Shown: positions 209 through 18,912 of the stretch, piece after piece
Layout: each line of letters starts with the position of its first letter
Numbering within the stretch: position 1 is the stretch's first letter
Virus record (IMG/VR): IMGVR_UViG_3300010403_000023
From: a virus
Taxonomy: Duplodnaviria; Heunggongvirae; Uroviricota; Caudoviricetes
DNA: 19,962 bases
Direction: 5' to 3' (one strand)
Translations under genes and position numbers: made by a program
Notes under the pieces: model-generated
Seen by the model: only the letters and a program-made list of their open reading frames with translations
Told to the model about the DNA's origin: nothing
The model's database searches: none

Positions 209-260
209 TTTGTTAGCAGGGGTTTGTTTTTCTATTGAGCGCCAGTTGCGACGCTCCGTT
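209..260 (-). repeat. Junction repeat copy E1
   Basis: Minus strand AACGGAGCGTCGCAAC...AATAGA...AACCCCTGCTAACAAA; its first base overlaps the TGA of ORF 260-430. Confidence 0.9.
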
Positions 261-430
261 CAGGGTTCGGGGCTGCTCTCATCTTCTTTTTTTGAACTTA
301 TTCTCAATATTCCTCCCGCAGGAATATCAAACTCAAACGATTGGGCAAAAAGAGATGTATGATCACCAATTGGAATATAATATGGCGGATAAATAGTTTG
401 TATAAATCCTGGTTGTTGCTGGTTTTCCAT
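260..430 (-). CDS. Hypothetical protein (56 aa)
   Basis: Own translation MENQQQPGFIQTIYPPYYIPIGDHTSLFAQSFEFDIPAGGILRISSKKEDESSPEP*; starts 2 nt after the stop of the upstream ORF. Below the track cutoff. Confidence 0.7.
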   Translation of the reverse strand: MENQQQPGFIQTIYPPYYIPIGDHTSLFAQSFEFDIPAGGILRISSKKEDESSPEP

Positions 431-432
431 AA

Positions 433-624
433 TTATACAATTAATCCTTGACGTGCTAAAATAATTTTAATTTCTTCTGCTTTGCAATCCCATTCTTCAC
501 CACTCATGCCATCCATTAATTTACAGTCTTTTTCGATAAGCGATAACGCATCATCAATATGTGTAACGGTTCCTAAAAACCTCATGCCATCCAAACTGTA
601 AATTCCTACAGGAAATTCTTCCAT
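433..624 (-). CDS. Hypothetical protein (63 aa)
   Basis: Track ORF 433-630 with the start moved to the ATG at 624 (MEEFPVG...); tightly packed with the next ORF. Confidence 0.7.
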   Translation of the reverse strand: MEEFPVGIYSLDGMRFLGTVTHIDDALSLIEKDCKLMDGMSGEEWDCKAEEIKIILARQGLIV

Positions 625-654
625 ACTCAAAGTTTAATCCCTGACAAGACCCCG

Positions 655-705
655 CACGGAGCATCGCAACGATGTTAAATGTAATCCTTAATCCTACCAT
701 CAAAA
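655..705 (+). repeat. Junction repeat copy E2
   Basis: CACGGAGCATCGCAACGATGTTAAAT...CAAAA, ending 2 nt before the stop codon of 708-2117. Confidence 0.9.
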
Positions 706-707
706 AG

Positions 708-2117
708 TCAATACCCAAATACTGTCACATGAACTGTCATTCCAGTGAAAGAAGTGGCAAACACAAGCCCTGTGAGTATTGCTACTATATTACTATTTGA
801 TTGAACTATATTTATTATAACCTGTGTTGTTGTGTAAGATTTAATACTTACAAATGGCACAGAAGCAATAGTAGATGTATTGCTAGCGGCCTGCGCCTGA
901 ACATTGAGGATGGTTGAGAATCCTGCGCTTGATATATCCACTGTTTGCCCACTTCCGGTTGTTGGTGTAATTATACCTGTCCATACCTTAGGAACAATGC
1001 TTAATAATCCTGCGCTATTATAAATCTGTGGCAATACGCCATATGTCCATGCTCTTACATTCTTAGAGGCAGTATCTACACGGAATTGAGTCGGTGTCGC
1101 GCTAGTATCTATCTTCAATGTTCCGGTTGTAGTTATCGCCCCTCCAGTAAGCCCATATCCGCTTGCTACAGATGTTACACTTCCGGTGCCATAACCTTTA
1201 CCTAATACAAAGTTTCGTGTATTCTTTACCGCACTATCTATGCGGAATTGCGTAGGAATATTTGTAGAGTCTACCAGTAGAGTTCCAGTAGTTGTAATTG
1301 CTCCTCCGGACAATCCAAAGCCACTTCCTACCGAAGTAACACTACCTGTCCCGTAGCCTTTTCCAAGAACAAAGTTCCTTGTGTTCTTTACAGCACTGTC
1401 TATTCTGAATTGCGTCGTAACATTGGTACTGTCTACTCTTAAGGTTCCGGACGTGGTGATCGGACCACCCGTAAGGCCAAATCCCGTAGTAACATTCGTA
1501 ACAGATCCTGTTCCAAATCCTTGTGCTGTTACATAATCTCTTATATTCTTAGAAGTGCTGTCTATGCGAAATTGAGTAGGTGTGCTTGTGGTATCCACTT
1601 TGAATTGAAAACCACTGAGCAGCAAGCCATATCCGTTTGTGTAAGGAGTTATTGTTGGTATAGCGCTGCGAATATTGGTTGCTGTGTCTGATAAGGCAGA
1701 TAACGTCGCGTATTGCTTGCGGATGATGTAGTTTATGGTAGCTAATTCTGTTGTATCTATTTCTACGCTGTCTTTATGATGTACTATAGTTCCGTAGTAG
1801 TTAAATACTTTTGTTTGGGCCTGAATAAAAAGCGTATCTATATTGGACAATATTCTTAGCCAGGTAGTATCTCTTCGACCATAGTATAGCTGACTATCTA
1901 TAGGGTTTATCTGTAAAAATCCGATGGCGGGGATATTTGTGTTTTGAAAGGGCCATTTTGTTATAGGTCTTATAGGAAGACGAAAACTGCTGTCTACTAC
2001 CATTGCTCCTGCTATTTTCTGAATACCATGAGTTTGACCTTCATTAGTAATAGTCTGAGATATTGCCGCTAAGTAGCAGAAACGTAAGACTGTTAGAATA
2101 ATAAAAGGTGTTCTCAT
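708..2117 (-). CDS. Tail-fibre-like / surface repeat protein with a predicted signal peptide (469 aa)
   Basis: Hydrophobic N-terminus ending AIS-Q; about 3.4 copies of a 54-aa Gly/Thr-rich repeat (GTGSVTxVxxGxGLxGGxITTxGTL) of the type common in phage fibres; beta-rich C-terminal domain. Confidence 0.6.
   Translation of the reverse strand: MRTPFIILTVLRFCYLAAISQTITNEGQTHGIQKIAGAMVVDSSFRLPIRPITKWPFQNTNIPAIGFLQINPIDSQLYYGRRDTTWLRILSNIDTLFIQAQTKVFNYYGTIVHHKDSVEIDTTELATINYIIRKQYATLSALSDTATNIRSAIPTITPYTNGYGLLLSGFQFKVDTTSTPTQFRIDSTSKNIRDYVTAQGFGTGSVTNVTTGFGLTGGPITTSGTLRVDSTNVTTQFRIDSAVKNTRNFVLGKGYGTGSVTSVGSGFGLSGGAITTTGTLLVDSTNIPTQFRIDSAVKNTRNFVLGKGYGTGSVTSVASGYGLTGGAITTTGTLKIDTSATPTQFRVDTASKNVRAWTYGVLPQIYNSAGLLSIVPKVWTGIITPTTGSGQTVDISSAGFSTILNVQAQAASNTSTIASVPFVSIKSYTTTQVIINIVQSNSNIVAILTGLVFATSFTGMTVHVTVFGY
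1053..1598 (-). repeat. Intragenic 162-bp (54-aa) tandem repeat, about 3.4 units
   Basis: aa 174-355: three full units starting VD(T/S)T..TQFRIDS plus a partial fourth; the units differ at many synonymous positions. Confidence 0.9.
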
Positions 2118-2126
2118 GTTGGTTGT

Positions 2127-2197
2127 TTTTGCAGCAGAGTTTTTTCGTTCTATTGAACTTCGGTGGCGATGGCACCGGTCAACTTCGGAATGCTATT
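2127..2197 (-). repeat. Junction repeat copy E3 with left arm ATAGCATTCCGAAG
   Basis: Minus strand ATAGCATTCCGAAGTTGACCGGTGCCATCGCCACCGAAGTTCAATAGAACGAAAAAACTCTGCTGCAAAA; follows the stop at 2196 and ends just before the leader of the ATG at 2117. Confidence 0.92.
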
Positions 2198-2570
2198 AAT
2201 CTTTAAACGACGAAAATATTTTTTTTATGTTTTCTGCCCATTTAAACATTTCTTCTTTTGAAACTCCTTTTACAATGTATTTAGCGTTTTCATCCTCAAA
2301 ATACATTTTTCTTTTTTTATGCACACAAAGAGAAAAAGTACGAGACCCGCTCGTAGATTTGCCATCCATCCAAGTAAGCCTCTTATTCGGATTAATCCCT
2401 ATTTCTTTCACTAGGGCAAATATCTCCTCAAACTCTTTGGCCAATAAGTCATAATCTGCTTCTGTTACTTCTTGAGTATATTCCAAAAATATTCTCTGGG
2501 CATGTACTAAAGATGGATCATTAACTTCAAGCACAGTCTGAATGGATTGGTGCGAATATTTTTTCTTCAT
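2196..2570 (-). CDS. Hypothetical protein (124 aa)
   Basis: Track ORF 2196-2660; start moved to MKKKYS (2570) because the upstream extension is the antisense of repeat E4. Confidence 0.75.
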   Translation of the reverse strand: MKKKYSHQSIQTVLEVNDPSLVHAQRIFLEYTQEVTEADYDLLAKEFEEIFALVKEIGINPNKRLTWMDGKSTSGSRTFSLCVHKKRKMYFEDENAKYIVKGVSKEEMFKWAENIKKIFSSFKD

Positions 2571-2580
2571 TTTATTATTC

Positions 2581-2662
2581 TTATGATTAAGAAAAGAATT
2601 CCTATTGTCGAACGGAGCGTCGCCACTGAAGCTGATAGATAGACTGGTGGCGACTTCCAAAA
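2581..2662 (+). repeat. Junction repeat copy E4 (hairpin subtype) with left arm TTATGATTAAGAAAAGAATTCCT
   Basis: Core 2611-2662 AACGGAGCGTCGCCAC...GTGGCGACTTCCAAAA; GTCGCCAC/GTGGCGAC is a perfect 8-bp inverted repeat. Confidence 0.92.
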
Positions 2663-2666
2663 CTTT

Positions 2667-3593: not shown

Positions 3594-3603
3594 GTTTTGT
3601 TTC

Positions 3604-3654
3604 TTTGGTAGTCGGCTGAAAGCATCTATGGGCTTGGTTTGCGATGGCACCGTT
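3604..3654 (-). repeat. Junction repeat copy E5
   Basis: Minus strand AACGGTGCCATCGCAAAC...CTTTCAGCCGACTACCAAA; ends 10 nt before the ATG at 3593. Confidence 0.9.
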
Positions 3655-3676
3655 CAATAACATCACTGCTTTGATC

Positions 3677-3841
3677 TTATTTCACCTTACGTAATTTTGG
3701 CTTGGCCCTTTTAGCCGCCGCACTGGAATTTCGGGTTGATGCAGCCAATATTGCTCCAGCGCGTTTCTGGCTTACTCCTTCTTTGCGGGCTATACTGGAT
3801 TGCACCGCTTTAAACCCGGGATGCGATTTTGATTTTGCCAT
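3677..3841 (-). CDS. Small, highly basic phage protein (54 aa)
   Basis: MAKSKSHPGFKAVQSSIARKEGVSQKRAGAILAASTRNSSAAAKRAKPKLRKVK; start moved to ATG 3841; K/R/A-rich and resembles a small-protein family I recognise from phages. Confidence 0.75.
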   Translation of the reverse strand: MAKSKSHPGFKAVQSSIARKEGVSQKRAGAILAASTRNSSAAAKRAKPKLRKVK

Positions 3842-3988
3842 GAGTTTTATTTTATAATGTAAATATACAAACTGTTTTGAGATTACCAACAACGATTCAG
3901 CTTCAGAACCTCAATTAAACCACATCAAAAATCAGCATCCACAACAACCTAACGATGCTATTTAGCCAGCCACTAAGACCTCATCACA

Positions 3989-4096
3989 TAAATGTTGCCA
4001 TAATGTTTATTATGCTAAATAGATTTTCTTATCTTTGTCTTTTTAACGGCAAAAATCTAATTAACATAATAATTAAAATACATTATAGAACATTTA
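3989..4096. repeat. Second repeat family, inverted pair 1 (arms 3989-4022 and 4057-4096)
   Basis: Left TAAATGTTGCCATAATGTTTATTATGCTAAATAG; reverse complement of right TAAATGTTCTATAATGTATTTTAATTATTATGTTAATTAG; 34-bp centre. Confidence 0.75.
4006..4037 (+). promoter_or_regulatory. Possible Bacteroidota primary-sigma promoter within inverted pair 1
   Basis: TATCTTTG (4030-4037) matches TAnnTTTG; TTTA (one mismatch to TTTG) lies 20 nt upstream. Confidence 0.35.
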
Positions 4097-4160
4097 CTCC
4101 GTTCTTTAATCAGCAAAACAATCCCTATTTGATTTCAGCCTTAGTTCTTTAAAATGGTAG

Positions 4161-4244
4161 TCGGATAATAAAAATTATGCTAAATAAACACTGTATCTAA
4201 TCCACCTCTTATCAGGTCTATGTTAACATAATTTTTACTATCGA
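4161..4244. repeat. Second repeat family, inverted pair 2 (arms 4161-4186 and 4219-4244)
   Basis: Left TCGGATAATAAAAATTATGCTAAATA; reverse complement of right TCGATAGTAAAAATTATGTTAACATA; 32-bp centre. Confidence 0.7.
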
Positions 4245-4326
4245 ATATCAGTTGTAAGGCAGTAAATCAAATCGGGATAAAAAGGATTGTTATGTAATAG
4301 TTGGGTTGGAGCGCAAAACTTCACCA

Positions 4327-4482
4327 ATGAAGTCGGGTTCAATAGTAATACATAAGGCAACTGAAATACTGATGACTGTGCATTCAGTTAATGGCAATAG
4401 AATAACTACCACATATTTCGATGCGTTATGTCAGTGCCATCAGAAAGAGTTTTATAACTATGACTTAGAACTCTTAGGTTGA
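4327..4482 (+). CDS. YodC/DUF2158-like small protein (51 aa)
   Basis: Own translation MKSGSIVIHKATEILMTVHSVNGNRITTTYFDALCQCHQKEFYNYDLELLG*; shows the G.IV..K....MTV...(Y/W)FD....F...L pattern of the neighbouring gene. Not in the track. Confidence 0.6.
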   Translation: MKSGSIVIHKATEILMTVHSVNGNRITTTYFDALCQCHQKEFYNYDLELLG

Positions 4483-4658
4483 GTTGGTTCTACATCTGTT
4501 AATTCAAATTCATTAAATGAACGTTGATTTGGTTTCTTGCCGTCAAACCAACTGCAAATCCACGATTCATTAGCGACTAAACCGTTATTCTTCTCTTTTA
4601 CGGTCATTGCTGGACTACCAGATTTAAGCCAAACAATCATTCCGGGTTCAATTTTCAT
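4458..4658 (-). CDS. YodC/DUF2158 family protein (66 aa)
   Basis: MKIEPGMIVWLKSGSPAMTV...CSWFDG...F...EL is the typical DUF2158 pattern; start moved to 4658. Confidence 0.8.
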   Translation of the reverse strand: MKIEPGMIVWLKSGSPAMTVKEKNNGLVANESWICSWFDGKKPNQRSFNEFELTDVEPTQPKSSKS

Positions 4659-4682
4659 CTTATTTGTTTCTTTGGTCAGACA

Positions 4683-4690
4683 CAAATATA
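4683..4690 (-). promoter_or_regulatory. Possible -7 element for the DUF2158 gene
   Basis: TATATTTG on the minus strand matches TAnnTTTG, 24 nt before the ATG; no canonical -33 TTTG seen. Confidence 0.3.
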
Positions 4691-4692
4691 GC

Positions 4693-4720
4693 AAAACCCC
4701 AGCATCCGTGCCGGGGTTTT
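4693..4720. terminator. Intrinsic terminator-like hairpin, possibly bidirectional
   Basis: AAAACCCC-AGCA-TCCG-TGCC-GGGGTTTT; T runs follow the GC stem on both strands. Confidence 0.65.
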
Positions 4721-4831
4721 CTATTTATTCCCCACAAAACAGGCCACCTTCAAGCCTCTCAACCCATACCTCTACGAACCTAGCTAACCGCCGATGTTCG
4801 CTACTTTGACCTCACCTAAGACCTCGACACC

Positions 4832-5070
4832 GTAAATGTTGCTATAATTTTTATTATCGTTAAATAGCCCCTATCCCGCTCCAACTCCCGTTCATTTTTC
4901 GACTGCACCACCGGCTTAAAAACACCATCACGCTACCATTCTCCCGACCCTTCCCCATAAAACAAAAAATCCAACCTCTTGGTTGGTATTCAGCTTTTGT
5001 AAGTTTTTGATTTTTTATTTTATCTCGGTAGCTATTGTAACATAATAAAGTGACATTATAGAACATTTAC
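4832..5070. repeat. Second repeat family, inverted pair 3 (arms 4832-4868 and 5031-5070)
   Basis: Left GTAAATGTTGCTATAATTTTTATTATCGTTAAATAGC; reverse complement of right GTAAATGTTCTATAATGTCACTTTATTATGTTACAATAGC; 162-bp centre. ACATTATAGAACATTTACT is identical at 4080-4098 and 5053-5071. Confidence 0.75.
4963..4986 (-). terminator. Intrinsic terminator-like hairpin
   Basis: Minus strand CCAACC-AAGA-GGTTGG followed by ATTTTTTG. Confidence 0.5.
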
Positions 5071-5160: not shown

Positions 5161-5231
5161 CATAGCATTCCTGAAGATGAACGGTGCTATCGCAAATCCG
5201 CTAAATAGAACGAAAAAACTCTGCTGCAAAA
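5161..5231 (+). repeat. Junction repeat copy E6
   Basis: CATAGCATTCCTGAAGATGAACGGTGCTATCGCAAATCCGCTAAATAGAACGAAAAAACTCTGCTGCAAAA; the last 28 bp are identical to E3 in inverted orientation. Confidence 0.92.
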
Positions 5232-5232
5232 G

Positions 5233-5270
5233 AAAAAAAATAAGTGCCCCAGTAATCTGAAAGGCACTTA
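5233..5270 (-). terminator. Intrinsic terminator after the 95-aa ORF
   Basis: TAAGTGCC/GGCACTTA 8-bp stem followed by T8 on the minus strand, 24 nt after the stop at 5295. Confidence 0.7.
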
Positions 5271-5294: not shown

Positions 5295-5582
5295 TTAAGC
5301 TGCAGGTGTATTAGCTGTAACTGCTGCCGCTACATTTGTTGCTTCTGCATCCAGGCTGTCTGCTAATGCGTTTAATGCTACCGGATCATTAGCATTATCA
5401 CGTATTGTTTGTGCCAGACTTCCTACGAGTGCTACTAAGCTCTCATCTACTGTTACCAGGTGTTGTACCGATGCCGTAAGGCGTTCCAATTCAGGACTCA
5501 TGTTTTTAGAGTTGTTTTTAATTGTTAAAAATAAGAAAAGAGTTGCTATAAATATTGCTGCCAGAATGATTATCGTTTGCAT
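5295..5582 (-). CDS. Membrane-anchored, Ala-rich helical phage protein (95 aa)
   Basis: N-terminal hydrophobic helix, then ELERLTASV...DPVALNALADSLDA...ANTPAA, a coiled-coil-like pattern. Confidence 0.7.
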   Translation of the reverse strand: MQTIIILAAIFIATLFLFLTIKNNSKNMSPELERLTASVQHLVTVDESLVALVGSLAQTIRDNANDPVALNALADSLDAEATNVAAAVTANTPAA

Positions 5583-5594: not shown

Positions 5595-6410
5595 TTATAT
5601 TTGTTTGGTAATATTTTCTATATATTGCATTATCTTTTTGATACCGCTTGCTGTGATCATGTACTTTATCGGCTTCCCGTATAGTTTTTCTCCCGGTTTT
5701 GTGTCGGCTACTACCAGCATTTTACTGATCAGTGTCTTTACGGCCGGTTTGAGGTAGTCTTTCTTGTGGCCCAGTTCTGTGTCTTCATTTATGGTTTTCA
5801 GGTCCACGAGGCTGTTTCTTTTCAGGTATAGCGAGAGTAATATCCGGAGCTCCGTTTCGTTTAGGCTTAATTCGCTGGCTTTTTCGTCTACGCTGTTGAG
5901 TATGGCCAGTGTGTATTTTGCAAAGGACTCATAGCCATTTACTGCTTTTTTTATTTCTCCATGGAAGGTTTCTGCGCGTTTTGCTATTGTTTTGGCTGTG
6001 TCGGAGAGTTGATAAAGGTCTATCTGGCTGTTCTGGGCACACATGAATAGCTGGACCATGTCTTCCCGGGAGGATACTGCGTAGATGCTGTTACGTTTCA
6101 TGCTCTCTACTATGTCGCTTCGCTTTTCTCCGAATTCATACTGGGATCTGATATGGAAGAGTGTCTGGGCTATTTCTTCTTCATCTCCTACTGTTATGCT
6201 CCAGTCTTTGTCAAGGAGGGTAAGCATTCTTAGGAGCTTATCCAGTCCTGAGTTTTTAGTAAAGTCGTTTATAGTTCGGTCTGAATGAAATATAGTAGAT
6301 ACGGTACCAGGGAGTTGGTTTATCTTATCCTTTGAAGTGTCTTTCATTATTTTGAAGACATAATCAGAAAGAGTTTGAAAGTGGATGGTATGTTTTCTGT
6401 ATTCACTCAT
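5595..6410 (-). CDS. Hypothetical protein with a putative C-terminal winged-helix DNA-binding domain (271 aa)
   Basis: LSLNETELRILLSL...LKTI...LKPAVKTLISKMLV...YMITASG resembles MarR-type wHTH. Confidence 0.55.
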   Translation of the reverse strand: MSEYRKHTIHFQTLSDYVFKIMKDTSKDKINQLPGTVSTIFHSDRTINDFTKNSGLDKLLRMLTLLDKDWSITVGDEEEIAQTLFHIRSQYEFGEKRSDIVESMKRNSIYAVSSREDMVQLFMCAQNSQIDLYQLSDTAKTIAKRAETFHGEIKKAVNGYESFAKYTLAILNSVDEKASELSLNETELRILLSLYLKRNSLVDLKTINEDTELGHKKDYLKPAVKTLISKMLVVADTKPGEKLYGKPIKYMITASGIKKIMQYIENITKQI

Positions 6411-6454
6411 TTTGGTTGTGTGGCGATGGCACCGGTCGACTTCGGAATGCTATT
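6411..6454 (-). repeat. Junction repeat copy E7 (internally shortened)
   Basis: 6420-6454 matches 2163-2197 at 34/35 nt; the right arm is absent and the core runs into ACAACCAAAATG. Confidence 0.88.
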
Positions 6455-7238
6455 CTAAAAATAATAAATTTTGTGGCGTTATTGGCGCCGATATTTTATT
6501 GCTGATTACGGAATTAAATCCATTATTTATACTATCAAATTTGACCATATACTCTGATTCAATTTTAAACACTTCACTATCCTCTATTTCTGATGGTAAT
6601 TCTTCAAGCACCTCAAAAGTCCAGTCGCTAAGTTTTGATTGGCGCAGAAATACACCAAATGGACTACTGCTGTGCGTCAAATGATTCCACCAACGAAAGA
6701 AGGGGGCGTTGCGGGTTTTTCCGATGTAACTTTTGTTGGTTGCTTTCTCTGTAACCTTATAAATGTAGTTTGGACTATCTGCTTTAATATAGTTCGTGTC
6801 GTCAGGGAAATCAATGTTTTTATACTTCTCCTTCTTATAATTACTTAAACATAATTCGCCGTCGTCTCCGCTCCTACAAAACAATATATCATCTCCAAAT
6901 AGTTTACTAATTCGAGGTTTTGAGACATACTTATTTTCATACACCTGCCCGCATGAAGCGCAAACCCATTCACCTTGATTTATTTGATCTATTTCCCATT
7001 GATATAATGGATAGATAACAACATAAAAGAATTGAGCGGTATCCTTAGTTTCCTTCTCATACACTTTGTCTTTCTGAAAGAATTGAGGATATTCTAATTT
7101 CAGAAACTCTTTTACAGCCGCCTTATCTTCGGACTCAATAACAGGAATCCTCACTACCTGATTGTCTCCACCAAAGTAACTGCCACTATCTGTACCGATA
7201 GATTTTACAACTCTTATAAATGCTTTGAATAACGACAT
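6450..7238 (-). CDS. GIY-YIG nuclease with an N-terminal Cys-containing region (262 aa)
   Basis: YIYKVTEKATNKSYIGKT...FRWWNH...IESEY...GFN: GIY/YIG, Arg, Glu and Asn landmarks present; CASC motif upstream. Confidence 0.85.
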   Translation of the reverse strand: MSLFKAFIRVVKSIGTDSGSYFGGDNQVVRIPVIESEDKAAVKEFLKLEYPQFFQKDKVYEKETKDTAQFFYVVIYPLYQWEIDQINQGEWVCASCGQVYENKYVSKPRISKLFGDDILFCRSGDDGELCLSNYKKEKYKNIDFPDDTNYIKADSPNYIYKVTEKATNKSYIGKTRNAPFFRWWNHLTHSSSPFGVFLRQSKLSDWTFEVLEELPSEIEDSEVFKIESEYMVKFDSINNGFNSVISNKISAPITPQNLLFLE

Positions 7239-7284
7239 TTTTGTGCTTTAAAATATGCGATGTTTCATGCTTATTCTGGTTTTC

Positions 7285-7336
7285 AACGGAGCGTCGCAAC
7301 GATGTTAAATAGAATTTCTAACCCCTGCTACCAAAA
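7285..7336 (+). repeat. Junction repeat copy E8
   Basis: AACGGAGCGTCGCAACGATGTTAAATAGAATTTCTAACCCCTGCTACCAAAA; the 3' 19 nt overlap the end of the GT2 gene. Confidence 0.92.
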
Positions 7337-7992
7337 TTTATTTCTCTATCCCATTGCATCCTTAACACCACCTCTTCTTCTTCACTACACCTCCTATACC
7401 TTCTTCCTTCTAAAAACCTTTTAGAAGTATTACCTTTATGTATAGTAGCTACAAAACTATCTATTCCTCCATGAGCATATACTCTTGCTCTTGAATCTAC
7501 AATAAAGTCAAAGTCTTCCCCAATATTTTTATCTTTAAAAGGATGCGCTTCCCAGAATGACTTTCTATAAGCCATTGTTCCACCTGCCACCCATGGCGTT
7601 TCTTTATCTTCATACGTGTACAGGTACCATGCTCCGTTATCTAGGTCATAGAAATATAACTTTGAAAGACCTACAATATCTGCTTCATTATTTAAAAGTG
7701 AATCTACTGATTGGCTGATCCAGTCTGGCTTACGCATATCATCGTCATCCCAATGTCCTATAATCTGGCCAGAAGCCTTTGCATTTCCGTAGTTTCTCTT
7801 AGCGCCTATTGTTCTAAATATTGGTGGCTGCATAATAAGCCTTACGTTACGCGGCACTCCATTTAATCCGCCATACAAACCAACAATGATCATTTCCTTA
7901 TCAGGATAGTCTTGCGCTATAAACATATCAATACATTGCTGGAGCATTTCCAGCCGGCTATCTATTGTTGGCACGACGACACTAACTTTCAT
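7318..7992 (-). CDS. Glycosyltransferase family 2 (GT-A) protein
   Basis: KVSVVVPT...QDYPDKEMIIV, GAKRNYG, HWDDDD, GEDFDF motifs. Confidence 0.85.
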   Translation of the reverse strand: MKVSVVVPTIDSRLEMLQQCIDMFIAQDYPDKEMIIVGLYGGLNGVPRNVRLIMQPPIFRTIGAKRNYGNAKASGQIIGHWDDDDMRKPDWISQSVDSLLNNEADIVGLSKLYFYDLDNGAWYLYTYEDKETPWVAGGTMAYRKSFWEAHPFKDKNIGEDFDFIVDSRARVYAHGGIDSFVATIHKGNTSKRFLEGRRYRRCSEEEEVVLRMQWDREINFGSRG

Positions 7993-9611: not shown

Positions 9612-9626
9612 GTTTTTGATTTTTTT

Positions 9627-9696
9627 TAGTTGTCCAGAAGTTCAGTTATCTATTGGGTTTCAGTGGCGTTGGCACCATTCGCCTTCGGAATGCTAT
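9627..9696 (-). repeat. Junction repeat copy E9 (diverged, in frame in ORF 9650-9904)
   Basis: Minus strand ATAGCATTCCGAAGGCGAATGGTGCCAACGCCACTGAAACCCAATAGA; same left arm as E3/E7. Confidence 0.8.
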
Positions 9697-9904
9697 GAAG
9701 TTTAGCCCTTTTATTTCTAATGACATCCAATATCCTATCTATCTCCTTTTCAACTTTAGCTGTTTCCTTAGCATTCAAATGAGCAGTGTACGCCTTCTTA
9801 TTTTTCATAACCATCTCAATTACCCAGGTCGCAGCAGCTATTTTGTAAGCATTCTCTACATGTAATAATTTGTCTGGGATAGCATCTATATTTACCTTTT
9901 TCAT
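9650..9904 (-). CDS. Hypothetical protein (84 aa), C-terminus encoded by repeat E9
   Basis: Track ORF; ends HSIPKANGANATETQ*. Confidence 0.7.
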   Translation of the reverse strand: MKKVNIDAIPDKLLHVENAYKIAAATWVIEMVMKNKKAYTAHLNAKETAKVEKEIDRILDVIRNKRAKLHSIPKANGANATETQ

Positions 9905-9943
9905 TGCGTTTTATATTTAAAGATGATAGAAGAAATTCAGTAG

Positions 9944-9994
9944 AACGGAGCGTCGCAAATCAAGATGCATAGCGACTTTCCGCTGGTAACAAAA
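9944..9994 (+). repeat. Junction repeat copy E10 (hairpin subtype)
   Basis: AACGGAGCGTCGCAAAT...GCGACTTTCCGCTGGTAACAAAA; CGGAGCGTCGC can pair with GCGACTTTCCG; ends 2 nt before the stop at 9997. Confidence 0.9.
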
Positions 9995-9996
9995 AG

Positions 9997-10728
9997 CTAT
10001 TTAGTTATTTCAATTAATCTCTCTCTTGTTTCTTTATTAAATCTCCACAACTGCAGCTTATCTGCACAAAATCCGCCGGCGTGATGAAGCACTTTTACTT
10101 TTTTGTCATTAAGAATAAGTTCACCTCCTTCCACTTTAATTTCTTTCCAGCTATCCCAGTGTGTCTTTTCTCCGAATAGCCCAGATACTCCATAATAAAC
10201 ATTACTCTCTATCGGATCTATGATTACCGTTCTATAGTTCTTTTTTATTACATTAAATACTGTCTGCTCCATAAAAGGAAGCAAATAACCATACATGAGA
10301 TTGCTATACATCCAGTACCGGATAAACTTTTTATTACCCGTTGCAATAAGGCCGCAATTCATATATTCATCTACACTGCTCCCATCCTGTAGGATAGGAG
10401 CATCCGCGCCAGCCTTACCATAATCATTATTATTACGAACACCTATCACATCAAAATCTTCTACCCCAAATAATTCATCCAGCGGACCTGCGATAATTGA
10501 ATCCGCATCAAAGTAAACTACGAAGTCGTAGCCATCTTTTAACACTTCATTTATCACAAATGGATGAAGGAGCCCCCATCGGACATGAAAGTTTTCAATC
10601 CTTTCGCTGTTAAATACAAACATTGGTATATTAGGGTAAAAATATGCCGCTGATTTTACAAGTCTATCGCAGCCAATTGAGTGATAGAACTCATCAGATA
10701 CATAGGTACAAAAGGCTATTTTTCTCAT
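9997..10728 (-). CDS. Glycosyltransferase, GT8-like
   Basis: YFDADSII (DxD), YMNCGLI, EQTVFN and HHAGG motifs. Confidence 0.75.
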   Translation of the reverse strand: MRKIAFCTYVSDEFYHSIGCDRLVKSAAYFYPNIPMFVFNSERIENFHVRWGLLHPFVINEVLKDGYDFVVYFDADSIIAGPLDELFGVEDFDVIGVRNNNDYGKAGADAPILQDGSSVDEYMNCGLIATGNKKFIRYWMYSNLMYGYLLPFMEQTVFNVIKKNYRTVIIDPIESNVYYGVSGLFGEKTHWDSWKEIKVEGGELILNDKKVKVLHHAGGFCADKLQLWRFNKETRERLIEITK

Positions 10729-11988: not shown

Positions 11989-12000
11989 GTTTTTTTAATT

Positions 12001-12070
12001 TTTTGCAGTCATGTTTATCTTATCTAGCATCGTCTGTTGCGATGGCACCGGTCACCGTTCCGAACTACTT
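12001..12070 (-). repeat. Junction repeat copy E11 with left arm AGTAGTTCGGAAC
   Basis: Core 12001-12052 ACCGGTGCCATCGCAACAGACGATGCT...CTGCAAAA; the arm contains the TAG of ORF 12065-12754. Confidence 0.9.
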
Positions 12071-12754
12071 TTTCTTTTGTATTACAGTAAAAATAACAGA
12101 CGCTTCCCAAGTCTTAGCCCGTTTTTCGTCTTCTGTAAATGCGCTCAGGTCATTCAAATCTGCCCTGAGCCATCCTTTGTGTTTTCCAGAACGCACCATC
12201 CTTCCCCTATCCGCATGTTCTAGTGCTTGAATATATGAAAGGTTATCGAATTCTACAGGGATGGAATCAGAAAGGTAGAATCTTTGCGGATCGCCCACAT
12301 TTTCGTCAAAATCCCAATATTCATAGTGCCAATGAGTGAATGAATAAAGGCATTCCTTGCCGTCACTATACCAGTACTTCTCTCCATCAAATGTAGCGGT
12401 CGCGGCAGATCCTCCTGGGATAATTAATAAAAGTGGAACATGCATCGGTGGCTTTCTCTCTTCCCTATGCCACCATTTACCTGCCGGCAATTCCATTTTC
12501 TGAACCGAATTCTTTCCATTGAGAATAGTTGTGAAGCCACCAAGGTTATAAATATGCAGTTCCTTCCAAAGACTACCTGCTTTTATTCCTTCAAGCTCTT
12601 TGTTGCTATATACCAGTATAACCTCTATTTCGTCTTGCTGTTCTATTCCGAAATGAGCGTCTTTTCTTAAACCATGAACTAGAGCGATTGGTCGCCGGTC
12701 AAATTCTTCTCTTATTGCTTTGTTTTCACTATCAAACTGTGATGTATGGCTCAT
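12065..12754 (-). CDS. Hypothetical protein (229 aa), possibly a fusion of small phage domains
   Basis: Track ORF; C-terminal LSYIQALEHADRGRMVR...W...AKTWE is loosely DUF2829-like (uncertain). Confidence 0.6.
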   Translation of the reverse strand: MSHTSQFDSENKAIREEFDRRPIALVHGLRKDAHFGIEQQDEIEVILVYSNKELEGIKAGSLWKELHIYNLGGFTTILNGKNSVQKMELPAGKWWHREERKPPMHVPLLLIIPGGSAATATFDGEKYWYSDGKECLYSFTHWHYEYWDFDENVGDPQRFYLSDSIPVEFDNLSYIQALEHADRGRMVRSGKHKGWLRADLNDLSAFTEDEKRAKTWEASVIFTVIQKKK

Positions 12755-12948: not shown

Positions 12949-12955
12949 AAAAAAA

Positions 12956-13006
12956 TTTGCAGCAGAAGGAAGTTTATATATTTAGCATCGTTGCGATAGC
13001 ACCGTT
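12956..13006 (-). repeat. Junction repeat copy E12
   Basis: Minus strand AACGGTGCTATCGCAACGATGCTAAAT...CTGCTGCAAA; ends 7 nt before the ATG at 12948. Confidence 0.9.
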
Positions 13007-13026
13007 CAACACTATCACATTGTGCC

Positions 13027-13701
13027 TTATTTTGAATTCCATTCCATCTCTTCTATAGATAGCCATTTTTCTTTGTCTAATAATTCACTTCTGCTTACTA
13101 AAATTAATTCATTGGGAGGATCAACGAGACCCGAGGCGCCATAAGAATTAGTGGGTTTTCCTGTGTCCAATAAAATTTTAGTTCGACCAACTTTCACCAC
13201 GGTATGAACGTCTGGAATATCTTCTATTTTAGATGGATTTACAACCCATTCCGCTTCGGCGTATTTATCTCCGATTTTTATTTCAGGTACAGCATCTCTG
13301 CCAAAAAAATCGGCAACCTTTATGCTGTGTCGCCATTGCGAAAGCATACTTTTATTAGAAACTTCATCCAACCATTTTATATAACCACTAACATCCACCT
13401 TCGCAATTGCATCCTTTTTAAGGATTAGCTGATAAAGTTCTTCTGCACGCTCAAGCACAGTTTCAAACGGAAGCATTTTTTCTGTGGGAACACTTAACGG
13501 CTCAAGACTTCCTTTATGCATGCTATTATTGGATTTATCTAAGATACTCATTAGTTTTTGAACTTTATCTAAATCCGTTGTGCCGTCATCTGTAATCATT
13601 TCTCTGGCCAACTCCAGCAGCTTATCATAATTATAGTCCCTTCCTTTTATTGGCCTGGCGACTAATTCTATACACTGTAAAAATAATTCTGAATTTCTCA
13701 T
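13027..13701 (-). CDS. Hypothetical protein (224 aa)
   Basis: Track ORF with an A-rich leader; no family recognised. Confidence 0.75.
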   Translation of the reverse strand: MRNSELFLQCIELVARPIKGRDYNYDKLLELAREMITDDGTTDLDKVQKLMSILDKSNNSMHKGSLEPLSVPTEKMLPFETVLERAEELYQLILKKDAIAKVDVSGYIKWLDEVSNKSMLSQWRHSIKVADFFGRDAVPEIKIGDKYAEAEWVVNPSKIEDIPDVHTVVKVGRTKILLDTGKPTNSYGASGLVDPPNELILVSRSELLDKEKWLSIEEMEWNSK

Positions 13702-13712
13702 TGTTTTGGTTT

Positions 13713-13793
13713 TTATGATTAAGAAAAGAATTCCTGTAGTTGCACGGTGCTATCGCAAATCCGCCGATAGATAGACTGTCGCTTGCTGCAAAA
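13713..13793 (+). repeat. Junction repeat copy E13 with left arm identical to E4
   Basis: TTATGATTAAGAAAAGAATTCCT (23 bp, identical to 2581-2603); core 13743-13793 CACGGTGCTATCGCAAATCCGCCGATAGATAGACTG...GCTGCAAAA. Confidence 0.92.
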
Positions 13794-13798
13794 GATTT

Positions 13799-14917: not shown

Positions 14918-14926
14918 GGTTTAATT

Positions 14927-14979
14927 TTTTGGTAGTAGGGGTTATGGGATTTATTGTGCTTCAGTGGCGACGCTCCGTT
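14927..14979 (-). repeat. Junction repeat copy E14 (in frame in YopX)
   Basis: 24 bp CGAACGGAGCGTCGCCACTGAAGC identical to E4; ends AACCCCTACTACCAAAA like E8. Confidence 0.92.
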
Positions 14980-15463
14980 CGTCCACATCACTTTGTGTAA
15001 GCAGTTCCGGGTTTTCGTAGATGTTTCCAATAATTTCAACCCACGCTATTTGTGATTCAGCTACATATATAGGCCACGACTGATAATGTTCTTTGTTTTC
15101 ATTATACCTATAAGCAAATCCACCATTATTAAATTCAACTTTTGCGGTGGTTATGAAATCCGCATTGGTTACCGCGTTACCGCAATCAGGACAATATTTG
15201 CTGATTGTGTATTGTAAATCGGAGTGCATTTCTTTTTGTGTGCAATGGGGGCATATTTTTTTCTTAACAGCAAAATTTACAATATCGCCTTCGTACATCT
15301 CTTTTCCTGTCTTATCCGATATGCCAGTATATTGTAGTGCCTGCAAAAGACTTGATGGGCTATTGATCCAGCAAATACCCTTGTTGTCAGTATTTGAGGT
15401 AAAGTTGAATACCCATCTTTTTTCTGTGGTATGCCACACTTTGAATTTTATATCTCTATTCAT
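14951..15463 (-). CDS. YopX family protein with a CxxC...CxxC insertion
   Basis: MNRDIKFKVW...LQYTGISDKTGKEMYEGDIV...EIIGNIYENPELL; insert CPHC...CPDC; tail ERSVATEAQ derives from the repeat. Confidence 0.85.
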   Translation of the reverse strand: MNRDIKFKVWHTTEKRWVFNFTSNTDNKGICWINSPSSLLQALQYTGISDKTGKEMYEGDIVNFAVKKKICPHCTQKEMHSDLQYTISKYCPDCGNAVTNADFITTAKVEFNNGGFAYRYNENKEHYQSWPIYVAESQIAWVEIIGNIYENPELLTQSDVDERSVATEAQ

Positions 15464-15929: not shown

Positions 15930-15973
15930 TTTACTGCGTTTTATGATTAAAAATGATAAGCGTGAAGGTGTCC

Positions 15974-16025
15974 AACGGAGCGTCGCACCAGGAGCTTGGT
16001 CAGCGGCTATTCGCTGGCTACCAAA
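15974..16025 (+). repeat. Junction repeat copy E15
   Basis: AACGGAGCGTCGCACC...GCGGCTATTCGCTGGCTACCAAA; overlaps the last codons of ORF 16007-16300. Confidence 0.88.
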
Positions 16026-16300
16026 GCATCTTCCTGTAATACTATTCTCTTATTTTCAAGTTGTATCTGTACTGTTTCTGGTCCTACTCTCAGGTACATT
16101 ACTTCTCCTTTTAAGTTCTTTATTCCATACCATCCATCACGACATTCATGTAGAGTAAATCCTATGTACAGAGGAGTTTCAAAGCCAGGGAGTTTAATAC
16201 TCTCTGTTAGCTTGTATATTTTACCATTTGCTTTTATTTCTTTTTTAGCTGCATTAGCAAAGAGGTAGTATTCTGTTTGTGGTTCTGATATGGATGGCAT
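16007..16300 (-). CDS. Hypothetical protein (97 aa)
   Basis: Track ORF; C-terminal LVASE* lies in the antisense of E15. Confidence 0.7.
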   Translation of the reverse strand: MPSISEPQTEYYLFANAAKKEIKANGKIYKLTESIKLPGFETPLYIGFTLHECRDGWYGIKNLKGEVMYLRVGPETVQIQLENKRIVLQEDALVASE

Positions 16301-16342
16301 AATTTTAAAATTTTGTTGTGAGCTTATTATTAGGTAGAGTTA

Positions 16343-16480
16343 GTGATGCTATTAGTAGCTTGGTAATGCCGAAATTAACGGTAGTTTTATCCGTCAACTA
16401 TAACTTCCTGTTTCTTCGCCCGACGTAACCGCCGCGACTCCACAGGCCCTTCCGACGTACCCCGCCGTGATTTTTCTAAT
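16343..16480 (-). ncRNA. Putative TnpB omegaRNA scaffold and start of guide (boundaries uncertain)
   Basis: GC-rich 3' end of tnpB (...CCTGTGGAGTCGCGGCGG...GAAGAAACAGGAAG) followed by the hairpin TTGACGG-N9-CCGTTAA; by established TnpB biology the omegaRNA overlaps this region. Confidence 0.45.
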
Positions 16481-17577
16481 CCCATAAACTTAATATTTAT
16501 TGCCGCATTTACGTCCCGGTCATGGGTTGCGTGGCATGATACGCATGTCCAATTTCTGTCTTCCAAGGTGATCTCTTCATTGATTACTTTGCATGTGCTG
16601 CAGGTTTTTGTAGATGGCTCAAATGTTCCTATCTCAATTACGCTTTTACCATTCCAAAGGCATTTGTATTGCAACATCTTCACAAACATAGACCAAGCCG
16701 CATCGGTGATTGCTTGCGCTAATCTATGGTTTTTCACCAGAGTTTTCACCGAAAGGGATTCTACGCAAAACGTAGTGGTTTGGTTATCGCGCACTAATTT
16801 TGTAGAAATTTTTTGCAGGTAGTCTTTTCGTTGGTTTGCTATTCGTTCATGTTGGATCGCCACGCGTTTTACAGCCTTCTTTCTATTACCGCTACCCTTC
16901 TTTTTTCGGCAAACTCTTTTTTGTAAAACAGCAAGTCGCTGTTGACTTAATTTTAGAAACTTTGGATTAGTAAACTTCGTTCCGTCAGATAAAATTGCAA
17001 GGTCTTTTAAGCCCAGGTCAATACCTATTGTTTTTTGTATATCTATCGGCGCTTTTGTTGGTTGGTGTATTTCATTGTCCACCAATATACTCACAAAATA
17101 TTTTCCGGATGGCACCCTGCTTATAATTATTCTTTTGACTTTCCCTTCAAATTTACGGCTGATACGAATTGGAATGTTTTTTATTTTAGTTATAGTAAGT
17201 AATTCATTATTAAAATCAATCTTTCTACCTTTATATGAACATTGAAAACTCTGTATTCCTTTTTTGCTTTTAAACTTCGGATAACCTGCATTTCTAAAAA
17301 AGTTCTTAAAGGCACTCTCTATTCTTATAACCGAAGCTACCAATGCTTGACTGTCAACTTCATGTAGCCATTCGTGATCTCGCTTTAATTCAACTAACTG
17401 CCTACATAAGCTAAACGCGGATAGGTTTATTTGATGTTGTTTATATGCAGATATTTTCACCTCCAAAGCTAAATTATATACTAACCTGCAAGCAGAAAAA
17501 GTCTGCTCAATCAATTTGATTTGGTCGCCAGTTGGATAAATTCGATATTTATATGATCTCAACATTTTTATATTCAA
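16387..17577 (-). CDS. tnpB: IS200/IS605-family TnpB RNA-guided endonuclease, no adjacent tnpA
   Basis: YKYRIYP HTH; RuvC-I IGIDLG, RuvC-II CVESL, zinc finger CSTC/CVSC, RuvC-III DRDVNAAINI; D-E-D triad intact. Confidence 0.95.
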   Translation of the reverse strand: MNIKMLRSYKYRIYPTGDQIKLIEQTFSACRLVYNLALEVKISAYKQHQINLSAFSLCRQLVELKRDHEWLHEVDSQALVASVIRIESAFKNFFRNAGYPKFKSKKGIQSFQCSYKGRKIDFNNELLTITKIKNIPIRISRKFEGKVKRIIISRVPSGKYFVSILVDNEIHQPTKAPIDIQKTIGIDLGLKDLAILSDGTKFTNPKFLKLSQQRLAVLQKRVCRKKKGSGNRKKAVKRVAIQHERIANQRKDYLQKISTKLVRDNQTTTFCVESLSVKTLVKNHRLAQAITDAAWSMFVKMLQYKCLWNGKSVIEIGTFEPSTKTCSTCKVINEEITLEDRNWTCVSCHATHDRDVNAAINIKFMGLEKSRRGTSEGPVESRRLRRAKKQEVIVDG

Positions 17578-17596
17578 TTACCTTTAAGTGTAGTAG

Positions 17597-17645
17597 AGCA
17601 GAACGTCGCCAAGGCTGAATCTATATTCTACCTTATGAAATAAAA
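17597..17645 (+). repeat. Degenerate junction repeat copy E16
   Basis: AGTAGAGCAGAACGTCGC vs E10 AGTAGAACGGAGCGTCGC (15/18); lies between the stop at 17633 and the tnpB start. Confidence 0.5.
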
Positions 17646-17893
17646 TCGTCGCTCTCTAATTCTTTATTTTTATTTCTAAAGAAAAAATAAACGGGCAATG
17701 CTATAAATAGCATGCACCAAGAACAGCACAAACACAACCATCCCTCCATCACATTCAAAATCCACATACTCACAGAAGGGATTTGTCCCCTGTTCATCAT
17801 AAAGTAAATAGCCTGCTCAATCCCAGAATGGAGGACTTTATAGGAGATAGCGCAGCCGATGAACCAGATAATGAGAATGATAGTTATGTTCAT
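17633..17893 (-). CDS. Small membrane protein (86 aa)
   Basis: Two hydrophobic stretches; ATGA overlap with the upstream gene. Confidence 0.7.
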   Translation of the reverse strand: MNITIILIIWFIGCAISYKVLHSGIEQAIYFMMNRGQIPSVSMWILNVMEGWLCLCCSWCMLFIALPVYFFFRNKNKELESDDFIS

Positions 17894-18156
17894 ATATTCT
17901 GTTTAAATTTTTGAAAACCTTCCTCTTCCGTTCCATTAGCAACAACAGTTACTTTTATCGGCATTATCTTATAATCACCTATCACTACCATTTCGTGATA
18001 TGATTTAGATATACCTTTTTGATGTAGTAATTTCACCATTGCTATACACATCGGAAAATCAGGTGCCATAGTAGATAGCTGGCAGCTACCATCAGGTGCT
18101 ACTAAAACATACATTTCTTCATTTTGTATTTCTTCAAAATTTACTTTTACACTCAT
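17890..18156 (-). CDS. Hypothetical protein (88 aa)
   Basis: ATGA overlaps on both sides. Confidence 0.7.
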   Translation of the reverse strand: MSVKVNFEEIQNEEMYVLVAPDGSCQLSTMAPDFPMCIAMVKLLHQKGISKSYHEMVVIGDYKIMPIKVTVVANGTEEEGFQKFKQNI

Positions 18157-18368
18157 GCTGCTTTAGATTTTGCTGCTCTTTTAATTTCCCGGTCCATTAA
18201 TCTTACAAATTTCCGGTATTCTTTTTCTGAAGTAACTTTAAACTCTTTCAATTCTTCAGCATTCAACGAACCGGAAATTCCTATGAAAAGATTATAAACC
18301 TTGTATAATTTTGGTTTATTCTTTTTCATTCTTTCGTGGATAAGTTTCAAGTTCATCGCGTGTTCCAT
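18153..18368 (-). CDS. Basic hypothetical protein (71 aa; start may be 18356)
   Basis: First gene after the leftward promoter; Lys-rich. Confidence 0.65.
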   Translation of the reverse strand: MEHAMNLKLIHERMKKNKPKLYKVYNLFIGISGSLNAEELKEFKVTSEKEYRKFVRLMDREIKRAAKSKAA

Positions 18369-18383
18369 TTTGAATATTTTTCA

Positions 18384-18414
18384 CAAAAGTAATTATCTTT
18401 TTTAATTTTCCAAA
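18384..18414 (-). promoter_or_regulatory. Leftward Bacteroidota primary-sigma promoter
   Basis: Minus strand TTTG (18411-18414)-N19-TACTTTTG (18384-18391): full match to the TTTG/TAnnTTTG consensus. Confidence 0.7.
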
Positions 18415-18431
18415 TAAAATTTGAAATAAAT

Positions 18432-18462
18432 TTTGTTTTGCGGATTCTATTTATTTACTTTG
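18432..18462 (+). promoter_or_regulatory. Rightward promoter (divergent)
   Basis: TTTG (18432-18435)-N19-TTACTTTG (one mismatch to TAnnTTTG), 15 nt before ATG 18478. Confidence 0.5.
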
Positions 18463-18477
18463 CACTAACAATACATT

Positions 18478-18912
18478 ATGATGATAGTAGTTCGGAACCA
18501 AGAACGGAGCGTCGCAACAGGCGACCAGGAGCGACTTTCAGCCGACTACCAAAAGAAATTAAAGTGGTTAAAAGCATGGAATAAATCCCGCGCAAAGGCA
18601 ATAAAAAAATACCAGAGTAAACCAAAGAAGCCACGTAAAATAAGACTGATCAGCATAAAGCGCCGCAAGCAACTTGATCAGTATTACATCTTATCCGAGC
18701 AATACTTAATAGACAATCCAGACTGCCAGGCAAAATTAAAAGGCTGCGTAGGTATAGCTGAAGAAATTCACCATATGCAAGGCCGCTCAAACGAATTATT
18801 ATTGGATACAAGATACTTTAAAGGAGTCTGCGGATCATGCCATATTGGGATAACTGAACATTCTGCCCAAGCTATACAGGATGGGCACAGTAAAAGTCGG
18901 CACAAAATATAG
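18478..18912 (+). CDS. HNH-like zinc-binding nuclease (144 aa) with repeat E17 in frame at the N-terminus
   Basis: CQAKLKGC...EEIHHMQGR...VCGSCH; basic N-terminal region; no in-frame ATG between the repeat and the nuclease domain. Confidence 0.75.
   Translation: MMIVVRNQERSVATGDQERLSADYQKKLKWLKAWNKSRAKAIKKYQSKPKKPRKIRLISIKRRKQLDQYYILSEQYLIDNPDCQAKLKGCVGIAEEIHHMQGRSNELLLDTRYFKGVCGSCHIGITEHSAQAIQDGHSKSRHKI
18487..18554 (+). repeat. Junction repeat copy E17
   Basis: AGTAGTTCGGAAC arm (as E11), core 18503-18554 AACGGAGCGTCGCAACAGGCGAC...CTTTCAGCCGACTACCAAAA (19 bp identical to E5). Confidence 0.92.

Follow-up and report, generated by a model that had tools for sequence, protein, structure and literature searches.

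A repeat at the gene junctions of a phage genome segment

The DNA studied here, referred to as the window, is the whole of a 19,962-nucleotide stretch (IMG/VR virus record IMGVR_UViG_3300010403_000023; Caudoviricetes) of an 84-kb phage. Gene direction is leftward from position 1 to about 18,400, with a Bacteroidota-type promoter match at 18,384-18,414 on the minus strand, and nearly all junctions other than gene overlaps carry a copy of a short repeat. This element of about 80 nt is non-palindromic and intergenic, and it is specific to the Chitinophagaceae and their phages rather than to phages as such. An earlier note on the same DNA had described it as a unit of about 52 bp, present in 16 clear copies and a degenerate seventeenth. 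All of these are present where they had been placed, with core lengths of 51-53 bp and variable stretches between the conserved boxes, and a repeat finder independently picked up the same repeat families. The core box ACGGWGCNNTCGC is matched seven times in the window, compared with 0.13 matches expected from shuffles.

For a quantitative description, a sequence-only covariance model (R1) was built from the 15 full copies aligned with 25 nt of 5' flank and run on the window with filters off. It recovered all 15 full copies, each at E <= 3e-12, together with the truncated copy E7 at E 2e-6, and no further matches. The copies are listed below in their order along the window; sense and antisense refer to the direction of transcription, bits are R1 scores and ORF stands for open reading frame.

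E1, 205..284, minus strand: full copy, sense, core type I (GGAGCGTCGC), 31 nt before the ATG at 177; 55.2 bits, E 9e-17
E2, 631..707, plus strand: full copy, antisense, A-run end 2 nt from the stop of 708..2117; 40.6 bits
E3, 2124..2203, minus strand: full copy, sense, core type II (GGTGCCATCGC), 9 nt before the ATG at 2117; 56.6 bits
E4, 2587..2665, plus strand: full copy, antisense, hairpin subtype with an 8-bp stem (GTCGCCAC/GTGGCGAC), fold z -2.46; 57.4 bits
E5, 3601..3678, minus strand: full copy, sense, type II, 10 nt before the ATG at 3593; 53.4 bits
E6, 5161..5234, plus strand: full copy, antisense, type II, 63 nt from the stop of 5295..5582; 53.5 bits
E7, 6405..6455, minus strand: truncated copy (5' flank and core only, model positions 7-56), sense, abuts the ATG at 6410; 21.8 bits, E 2.3e-6
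E8, 7264..7339, plus strand: full copy, antisense, its 3' end supplying the final six codons and the stop codon of the glycosyltransferase gene 7318..7992; 53.6 bits
E9, 9622..9700, minus strand: full copy, sense, variant core AATGGTGCCAACGCC, GGACAAC 3' end, subtype of the host copy L139; 40.8 bits
E10, 9920..9996, plus strand: full copy, antisense, GTCGC..GCGAC subtype, 2 nt from the stop of 9997..10728; 42.6 bits
E11, 11997..12076, minus strand: full copy, sense, type II, 12 nt before the ATG of the GT2-DUF5672 gene; 48.9 bits
E12, 12955..13030, minus strand: full copy, sense, type II, 7 nt before the ATG at 12948; 54.6 bits
E13, 13720..13797, plus strand: full copy, antisense, type II, mosaic; 53.2 bits
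E14, 14924..15000, minus strand: full copy, sense, type I; 59.9 bits
E15, 15949..16029, plus strand: full copy, antisense, overlapping the last 19 nt of ORF 16007..16300; 45.4 bits
E16, 17597..17645, plus strand: degenerate copy of the earlier note, 31 nt upstream of the TnpB start; unsupported by R1
E17, 18480..18556, plus strand: full copy, stop-free, forming codons 8-26 of the HNH-like ORF 18478..18912; 43.5 bits

Even at E <= 1 R1 gave no match at E16, which had been proposed as the degenerate copy and is not counted here; the site may be the expected left end of the TnpB element. Two reading frames end inside sense copies: ORF 9650..9904 enters E9 and terminates at its central TAG, and the YopX-like ORF 14951..15463 terminates at the central TAA of E14.

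Anatomy of the element

The core lengths, variable middles and orientations reported earlier stand, while the end assigned to the unit does not: the conserved unit measures about 76-85 nt and reaches 25-30 nt further on the 5' side. This extension consists of a stop-codon-rich box (TGAATAG, TTAATAG or TGATAG) followed by a spacer. The boxes common to the copies are AACGGWGC..TCGC on the 5' side, an ATAGA-like box in the centre and CTRCTRC(C)AAAA on the 3' side, where the element ends in an A-run. Within the unit a 20-nt core is strongly conserved and centred on the 7-nt palindrome GCGWCGC; the 7-11-nt palindrome around this motif, which has no spacer, is the sole dyad in the element.

A fold common to the copies was not found. 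RNAalifold predicted no consensus pair on the aligned copies, and mutual information over 67 phage and host copies revealed no long-range Watson-Crick covariation, only subfamily linkage inside the core. Folded singly, each copy adopts a different structure, with a mean z of about -0.7, and 3 of 15 lie below z -2 relative to shuffles. The imperfect hairpin (GTCGC...GCGAC) noted earlier for E4, E10, E15 and E17 is thus a trait of a subtype and not of the family. Hairpins followed by a T-run are absent from the copies in either orientation, and terminal inverted repeats, as known from miniature inverted-repeat transposable elements, were not found within them. An Rfam scan of the window yielded no matching family, its only hit being a weak, unrelated match to the rnk leader at 4685-4796, and the core sequence was not found in searchable papers.

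Two further explanations of the internal structure were rejected. A box of the AATAGAATT kind occurs twice per copy, which brought a target-site duplication into consideration; this origin was discarded, since two halves taken from one copy match no better than halves taken from different copies (score 10.7 within vs. 10.65 between copies, p 0.42), and the half-repeat is a trait of the family instead of the individual copy. Likewise, a conserved C-terminal peptide (tails such as ERSVATEAQ) does not account for the conservation, which resides at the DNA level because the core types differ by one base and the HNH-like homologue in a related phage contig, L199, uses another frame. The two HNH-like genes (window 18478-18912, plus strand; L199 4651-5133, minus strand) both carry a copy of the repeat in their 5' parts, with an identical stretch of 18 nt in the core; since the copy is read in different frames (ERSVAT vs. 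NGASQQ), the DNA is better conserved than the peptide. The real start codon of this pair may lie downstream.

Position and orientation of the copies

The placement described in the earlier note was borne out. Beyond sense copies the next ATG follows within 0-31 nt in 8/8 cases, and antisense copies lie between 5 nt before and 19 nt inside the stop of the upstream gene in 7/8 cases (E16 included), the exception being E6 at 63 nt. E17 is read through by its own gene instead. In the window and in at least three related phage contigs the element occupies almost all gaps between the closely packed gene blocks, and its A-run directly precedes the start codon in sense copies and directly follows the stop codon in antisense copies.

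Orientation switches between neighbouring copies in 13 of 15 pairs in the window (p 0.004) and in 15 of 19 pairs in L199, adding up to 28/34 (p 1e-4). In both, the alternating sites frame gene modules, an arrangement that is also a feature of pdif (Xer) modules. Two matches to the Bacteroidota promoter consensus are present in the window, both outside the model-defined copies. Because only one of them serves the 18-kb leftward array, the copies are probably parts of long transcripts. A further conserved module, also short and with the consensus GGAATTCTTTTCTTAATCATAAGAA on the transcribed strand, is located at 2571-2605 and 13703-13737, between the antisense copies E4 and E13, respectively, and the next ATG; it may be a promoter or leader of the phage that accompanies some of the copies.

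Related phages and their accessory slots

Relatives were found as phage-sized contigs carrying homologues of the GT2-DUF5672 protein with about 50-54% identity. The repeat is abundant in L199 (20 copies in 22 kb of a 94-kb JGI contig) and less so in L205 (eight copies; GCA_040384425.1, JAWVGW010001270.1) and L206 (three copies). Six of the eight copies in L205 belong to one subtype with a GGTGCCATCGCC core and a GGACAAC 3' end, which points to one variant having spread or been homogenised within that genome. Copies are missing from two Logan contigs of the temperate type, L198 (55 kb) and L204 (50 kb), which encode an integrase and a terminase. As these two contain the three-gene glycosyltransferase block of the window, this block moves between phage types independently of the repeat. 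Other routes to relatives were less productive: queries of IMG/VR with four window proteins and one repeat pattern returned no close phage relatives, the pattern giving four matches, among them one contig (L003) with a single true copy; Megablast against deposited phages gave no match; a query for resembling stretches in other genomes was likewise empty; and a cluster look-up for near-identical strains yielded nothing beyond read-level fragments and the 83,962-bp contig to which the window belongs. The only run listed with the stretch is a soil metagenome, probably the one from which it derives, and no RNA run is among those listed.

Genes conserved across the relatives encode a large glycosyltransferase, a 238-aa protein, a small GT2 protein (~210-224 aa), a 271/280-aa protein and a protein with an fn3 domain. 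Between these genes, variable content is bounded by copies of the repeat. The interval from the small GT2 gene to the fn3 gene is empty in L199, holds one antisense-sense bracket with a 152-aa ORF in L205, and in the window contains two brackets, one around a GIY-YIG-like gene and one sparsely coding with a DUF2158 gene, in addition to genes for 271 and 95 aa. Past the fn3 gene, unrelated small ORFs are found, one of 124 aa between E4 and E3 in the window and one of 66 aa between an antisense and a sense copy in L199. The 271/280-aa gene is found in differing neighbourhoods in three phages, each time directly behind a sense copy, and the junction of E11 is likewise occupied by a sense copy in L199 and L205, with a 68-aa ORF between copy and GT2-DUF5672 gene in the latter. 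Accessory genes are thus held in antisense-sense brackets in which the core side of the element faces the cargo. The synteny of the window, L199, L205 and L206 accordingly displays a trait of the promoter early stem-loop (PeSL) cassettes of T4-type phages, a repeated intergenic motif that flanks variable genes.

The interior of the bracket formed by E6 and E5 (3677-5066) is sparsely coding and includes the DUF2158 small-protein gene (4458..4658, minus strand), a strong terminator-like hairpin of 12 bp (4693-4720, minus strand), the weak rnk-leader match mentioned above and, in the opposite direction, a Bacteroidota-type promoter match (3670-3699, plus strand). It could be an inverted or foreign module.

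The copies themselves are mosaics. Exact tracts of 13-28 nt are common to different copies, the most prominent being 28 nt in the 3' halves of E3 and E6, 24 nt in the 5' halves of E4 and E14 and 19 nt at the 3' ends of E5 and E17. E6 and E13 have the same core; E13 in turn has its flank and middle in common with E4, from which it differs in core and 3' end. At least three breakpoints are needed to account for these patterns, and a single site-specific crossover therefore fits less well than gene conversion or general recombination. Copies flanking core blocks seemed to avoid homology (minimal tracts in 5/5 cases in the window), a post hoc observation that was not replicated in L199 and was abandoned.

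Distribution in host chromosomes

The earlier note had proposed scanning related phages and Bacteroidota chromosomes with a model of the repeat. R1 detected the element in 69 of 151 genomes from the family of Sediminibacterium ginsengisoli (Chitinophagaceae), many of them with 20-30 scored matches. In a phylum-wide sample of 151 genomes four were positive; all four were already members of the family sample, and outside the Chitinophagaceae the phylum-wide sample yielded no match. Host copies exhibit the architecture of the phage copies and the core variants GGAGCGTCGC, AGTGCGACGC, GGTGCCATCGC and GGTGCCAWCGC that also occur in phages. Idiosyncratic subtypes of the whole element are common to some host and phage copies, as exemplified by E9 and host L139.

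A hidden Markov model made from phage and host copies was used to scan 1.6 Mb of the complete genome G117. It detected 56 copies, one per 28.6 kb, which corresponds to about 110 per chromosome. Fifty-four of them lie outside ORFs (p 3e-49), and in the host the element is tolerated only between genes. The junctions concerned are of the sense-tandem (18), antisense-tandem (16), divergent (11) and convergent (9) classes, in proportion to the numbers of such junctions. Neighbouring copies are oriented at random (29/55 switches), a replication-strand bias was not significant (p 0.15), and the few close pairs of copies have housekeeping genes between them. The density of 0.035 copies per kb compares with 0.80 in the window and 0.91 in L199, i.e., it is about 23-25-fold higher in the phages.

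Five copy-bearing junctions of G117 were inspected in the sister species G155, in which the flanking genes have 67-79% nucleotide identity. Four counterparts were identifiable and none (0/4) carried a copy, a presence/absence polymorphism of the kind seen with miniature inverted-repeat transposable elements. In one case the G117 copy provides the upstream gene with its stop codon, and the ancestral stop persists just downstream of the element. Since positions are not conserved between sister species, orientation is random and all intergenic classes are occupied, the element turns over like a mobile element. In G117 and in the family and phylum samples it combines traits of repetitive extragenic palindromic (REP) sequences, namely high copy number, extragenic location and restriction to a lineage. 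The earlier note had held against its own proposal the case of a host REP-like element in hundreds of copies that is unconnected with gene gain or loss. The first part describes the situation in the hosts, at the copy number given above; the second does not apply to the phages.

Candidate partner enzymes

The earlier note had proposed a protein-recognised recombination or transposition site and suggested a search for a tyrosine or serine recombinase or an HUH transposase (RAYT, the REP-associated tyrosine transposase, or TnpA) that co-occurs with the repeat. Gain and loss of the element as a unit and its conserved core agree with the proposal; a dedicated enzyme was not found. In the 20-kb window of the 84-kb phage, Pfam revealed no gene for a tyrosine or serine recombinase, an integrase or a Y1 transposase, and the nuclease-type genes present encode TnpB, a weak GIY-YIG-like and an HNH-like protein.

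Across the 151 family genomes, none of the candidates is linked to the repeat. RAYT/Y1 (PF01797) occurs in 56 of 69 repeat-positive and 62 of 82 repeat-negative genomes (p 0.44) and has no match in the repeat-rich genomes G117, G050 and G074. TnpB is present in seven genomes, none of them repeat-positive, while the HNH-like gene of the phage is found in four genomes and the GIY-YIG-like gene in two. All four were rejected as partners. The tnpB gene of the window (16387-17565, minus strand) looks intact, with HTH_OrfB_IS605, OrfB_IS605 and Cas12f1-like TNB domains, is not accompanied by TnpA and lies in the phage early region.

Possible origin and function of the element

We favour, at an about even balance of probability, the reading that the repeat is the phage-resident form of a mobile junction element of the Chitinophagaceae and serves as portable homology for the exchange of modules in phages. 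According to this proposal, an element mobile in the host family would have colonised the phages, where the exact tracts that copies have in common would act as portable homology. General recombination or gene conversion between copies, be it within a genome, between co-infecting phages or with the host, would shuffle parts of the element, and the same recombination would insert, replace or delete the genes between copies. Alternation would most simply arise if accessory genes survive only between inverted copies, adjacent direct copies deleting the intervening DNA, and/or if cargo arrives already framed by an antisense-sense pair. The stop-capped 5' side and the A-rich 3' side may render the element harmless inside long transcripts. 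A factor that recognises the 20-nt core would account for the spread of the element; recognition of this kind is suggested by the maintenance of the core in different host genera and in phages.

Several observations weigh against this proposal. Passive homology alone does not explain why the 20-nt core is conserved across genera, and a recognising protein or another function is needed. No recombination event has been caught directly. With relatives at about 50% protein identity and no base-by-base alignment of junctions, the occupied junctions could represent independent insertions. Host copies are mostly solitary, so that a cassette-like layout is not inherent in the element. Finally, the two copies of a bracket do not resemble each other more closely than randomly paired copies do, and cargo is not visibly moving with a matched pair; on the same grounds matched terminal repeats and cognate RNA panhandles were rejected.

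Among the alternatives, a role in the punctuation of gene expression fares best, even though we consider it unlikely. The element would then be a signal for the host machinery, in the form of a DNA site bound by a host protein or of an RNA processing, insulating or translation-initiation module, which the phage employs between its gene blocks, and gene exchange would be a side effect. Its strict confinement to junctions, the A-run 0-31 nt before the start codon in every sense copy, the single promoter match for the 18-kb array and the maintenance of the core and a few variants across host genera and phages would be expected of such a module, as would the sense copies upstream of the GT2-DUF5672 and 271/280-aa genes in three phages whose proteins have only ~27-54% identity. 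Against it stands the behaviour of the host copies, which are random with respect to transcription (18 sense, 16 antisense), follow the frequencies of the junction classes and do not keep their positions between sister species. Moreover, the copies have no shared fold, covariation, Rfam family or terminator-like structure in either orientation, and the same phage junction can be occupied by different subtypes.

The reading of the earlier note, a dedicated site-specific system in which a recombinase or an HUH or other transposase moves cassettes in the manner of attC, pdif or REPIN-RAYT systems, appears distinctly improbable. The fixed length with conserved ends and variable middle, the palindrome in the core, the alternating orientation with brackets around accessory genes and the presence/absence polymorphism in hosts all resemble such a system. 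On the other hand, the 20 kb of the 84-kb phage covered here contain no recombinase or Y1 gene, none of the four candidate genes tracks the repeat in the 151 genomes, close copies in the host enclose housekeeping genes, terminal inverted repeats and copy-specific target duplications are lacking, and the mosaics call for several breakpoints instead of one. A hitherto undescribed, family-specific gene-cassette system common to Chitinophagaceae chromosomes and their phages, in which a protein recognising the 20-nt core around GCGWCGC would move the element from junction to junction along with genes in antisense-sense frames and phages would be the main reservoir and vector, seems improbable to the same degree.

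Long-range RNA stems, in which a sense copy would pair with the next antisense copy of the polycistronic transcript into a double-stranded stem that marks off a gene block to be protected or processed by an RNase III-type enzyme, are hardly credible: copies do alternate along one direction of transcription, and 4 of 6 sense-gene-antisense pairs in L199 have exact tracts of 15-19 nt, but the five such pairs of the window have exact tracts of only 6 nt, below the average of all pairs, the best-matching copies (E3/E6, E4/E14, E5/E17) are not neighbours, and host copies are solitary and randomly oriented.

Comparison with known intergenic repeats

Among phage elements, the PeSL cassettes mentioned above are the closest counterpart. 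They consist of a sigma-70-like promoter and a terminator stem-loop, are oriented with transcription and phage-specific, and recombination between copies has been proposed to drive module shuffling (Arbiol et al., 2010, PMC2839356; Comeau et al., 2014, PMC4122927). The element described here resembles them as a short intergenic motif with many copies in an accessory-rich phage region, where it flanks small orphan genes and inter-phage differences end at the motifs. It differs in that it has no shared stem-loop, lies off the two promoter-consensus matches, is antisense in about half of its copies with alternating orientation, and is shared with the host.

The REPs of Proteobacteria are hairpin-forming imperfect palindromes of 20-40 bp, and their mobilisation relies on a RAYT gene with inverted REPs on either side (Nunvar et al., 2010, PMC2817692; Di Nocera et al., 2013, PMC3733652). 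With these and with bacterial interspersed mosaic elements the junction repeat has in common about 100 or more extragenic copies per chromosome, restriction to a lineage, a mosaic of few types, variable positions and alternating clusters. At ~80 nt it is longer than a REP, non-palindromic and without a link to Y1 genes, and it alternates only in phages, with whole genes between the copies. The CGTC motif of tagged REPs is present, while their stem of 8-9 bp, loop of 4-5 nt and CCA tail are not.

Gene modules framed by short sites also recall recombination systems. The pdif modules of Acinetobacter plasmids are bounded by alternating sites of 28 bp, in which two 11-bp arms bound by XerC/XerD are separated by a 6-bp spacer, and attC sites, which occur in a single orientation, have conserved, inverse-complementary ends and a variable middle, form a bulged hairpin and need an adjacent IntI. 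Alternation is the point of similarity with pdif, and conserved ends with a variable middle that with attC. An 11-6-11 dyad of the Xer type is not contained in the element. In contrast to attC its ends are not complementary, its orientation alternates, the window encodes no integrase and the mosaics have several breakpoints.

Much work has been devoted to the dispersed intergenic repeats of Proteobacteria and Firmicutes. The BOX elements of pneumococcus, the Correia/NEMIS elements of Neisseria and the Rickettsia palindromic elements (RPE) have terminal inverted repeats or strong secondary structure. Like them, the element described here is intergenic, co-transcribed and modular, with an occasional stop-free copy inside a gene (E17). 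We know of none of these families that is concentrated in phages of the same host group, and in the literature searched no dispersed intergenic repeat has been described for the Chitinophagaceae.

Other genes of the window

The gene at 708-2117 (minus strand) encodes a 469-aa protein whose internal repeats have a period of about 486 nt (162 aa) and include recurring TQFRIDS..KN.R..V.. segments. Its N-terminal 91 aa match a 478-aa protein encoded after the fn3 gene in L205, and it is probably a fibre or receptor-binding protein. At 19677-19948 (plus strand) lies a replication-initiator-like gene (DUF4373-type N-terminus; PHROG category replication initiation). Within it a 21-nt unit is tandemly repeated in two arrays, by which the heptapeptide PEELPNT is encoded several times.

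Significance for the Chitinophagaceae and their phages

A repeat shared by a bacterial family and dense in its phages is a direct sequence marker for the assignment of phages to hosts in soil metagenomes. The slot structure, visible across several contigs, constitutes a natural system for the way in which short portable homologies organise the accessory genomes of phages, and the identity of the factor recognising the conserved core is a tractable question. If a dedicated enzyme exists, the element would represent a new cassette system; if none does, it would be a clean case of recombination-driven modularity, akin to that of the PeSL cassettes but of host origin.

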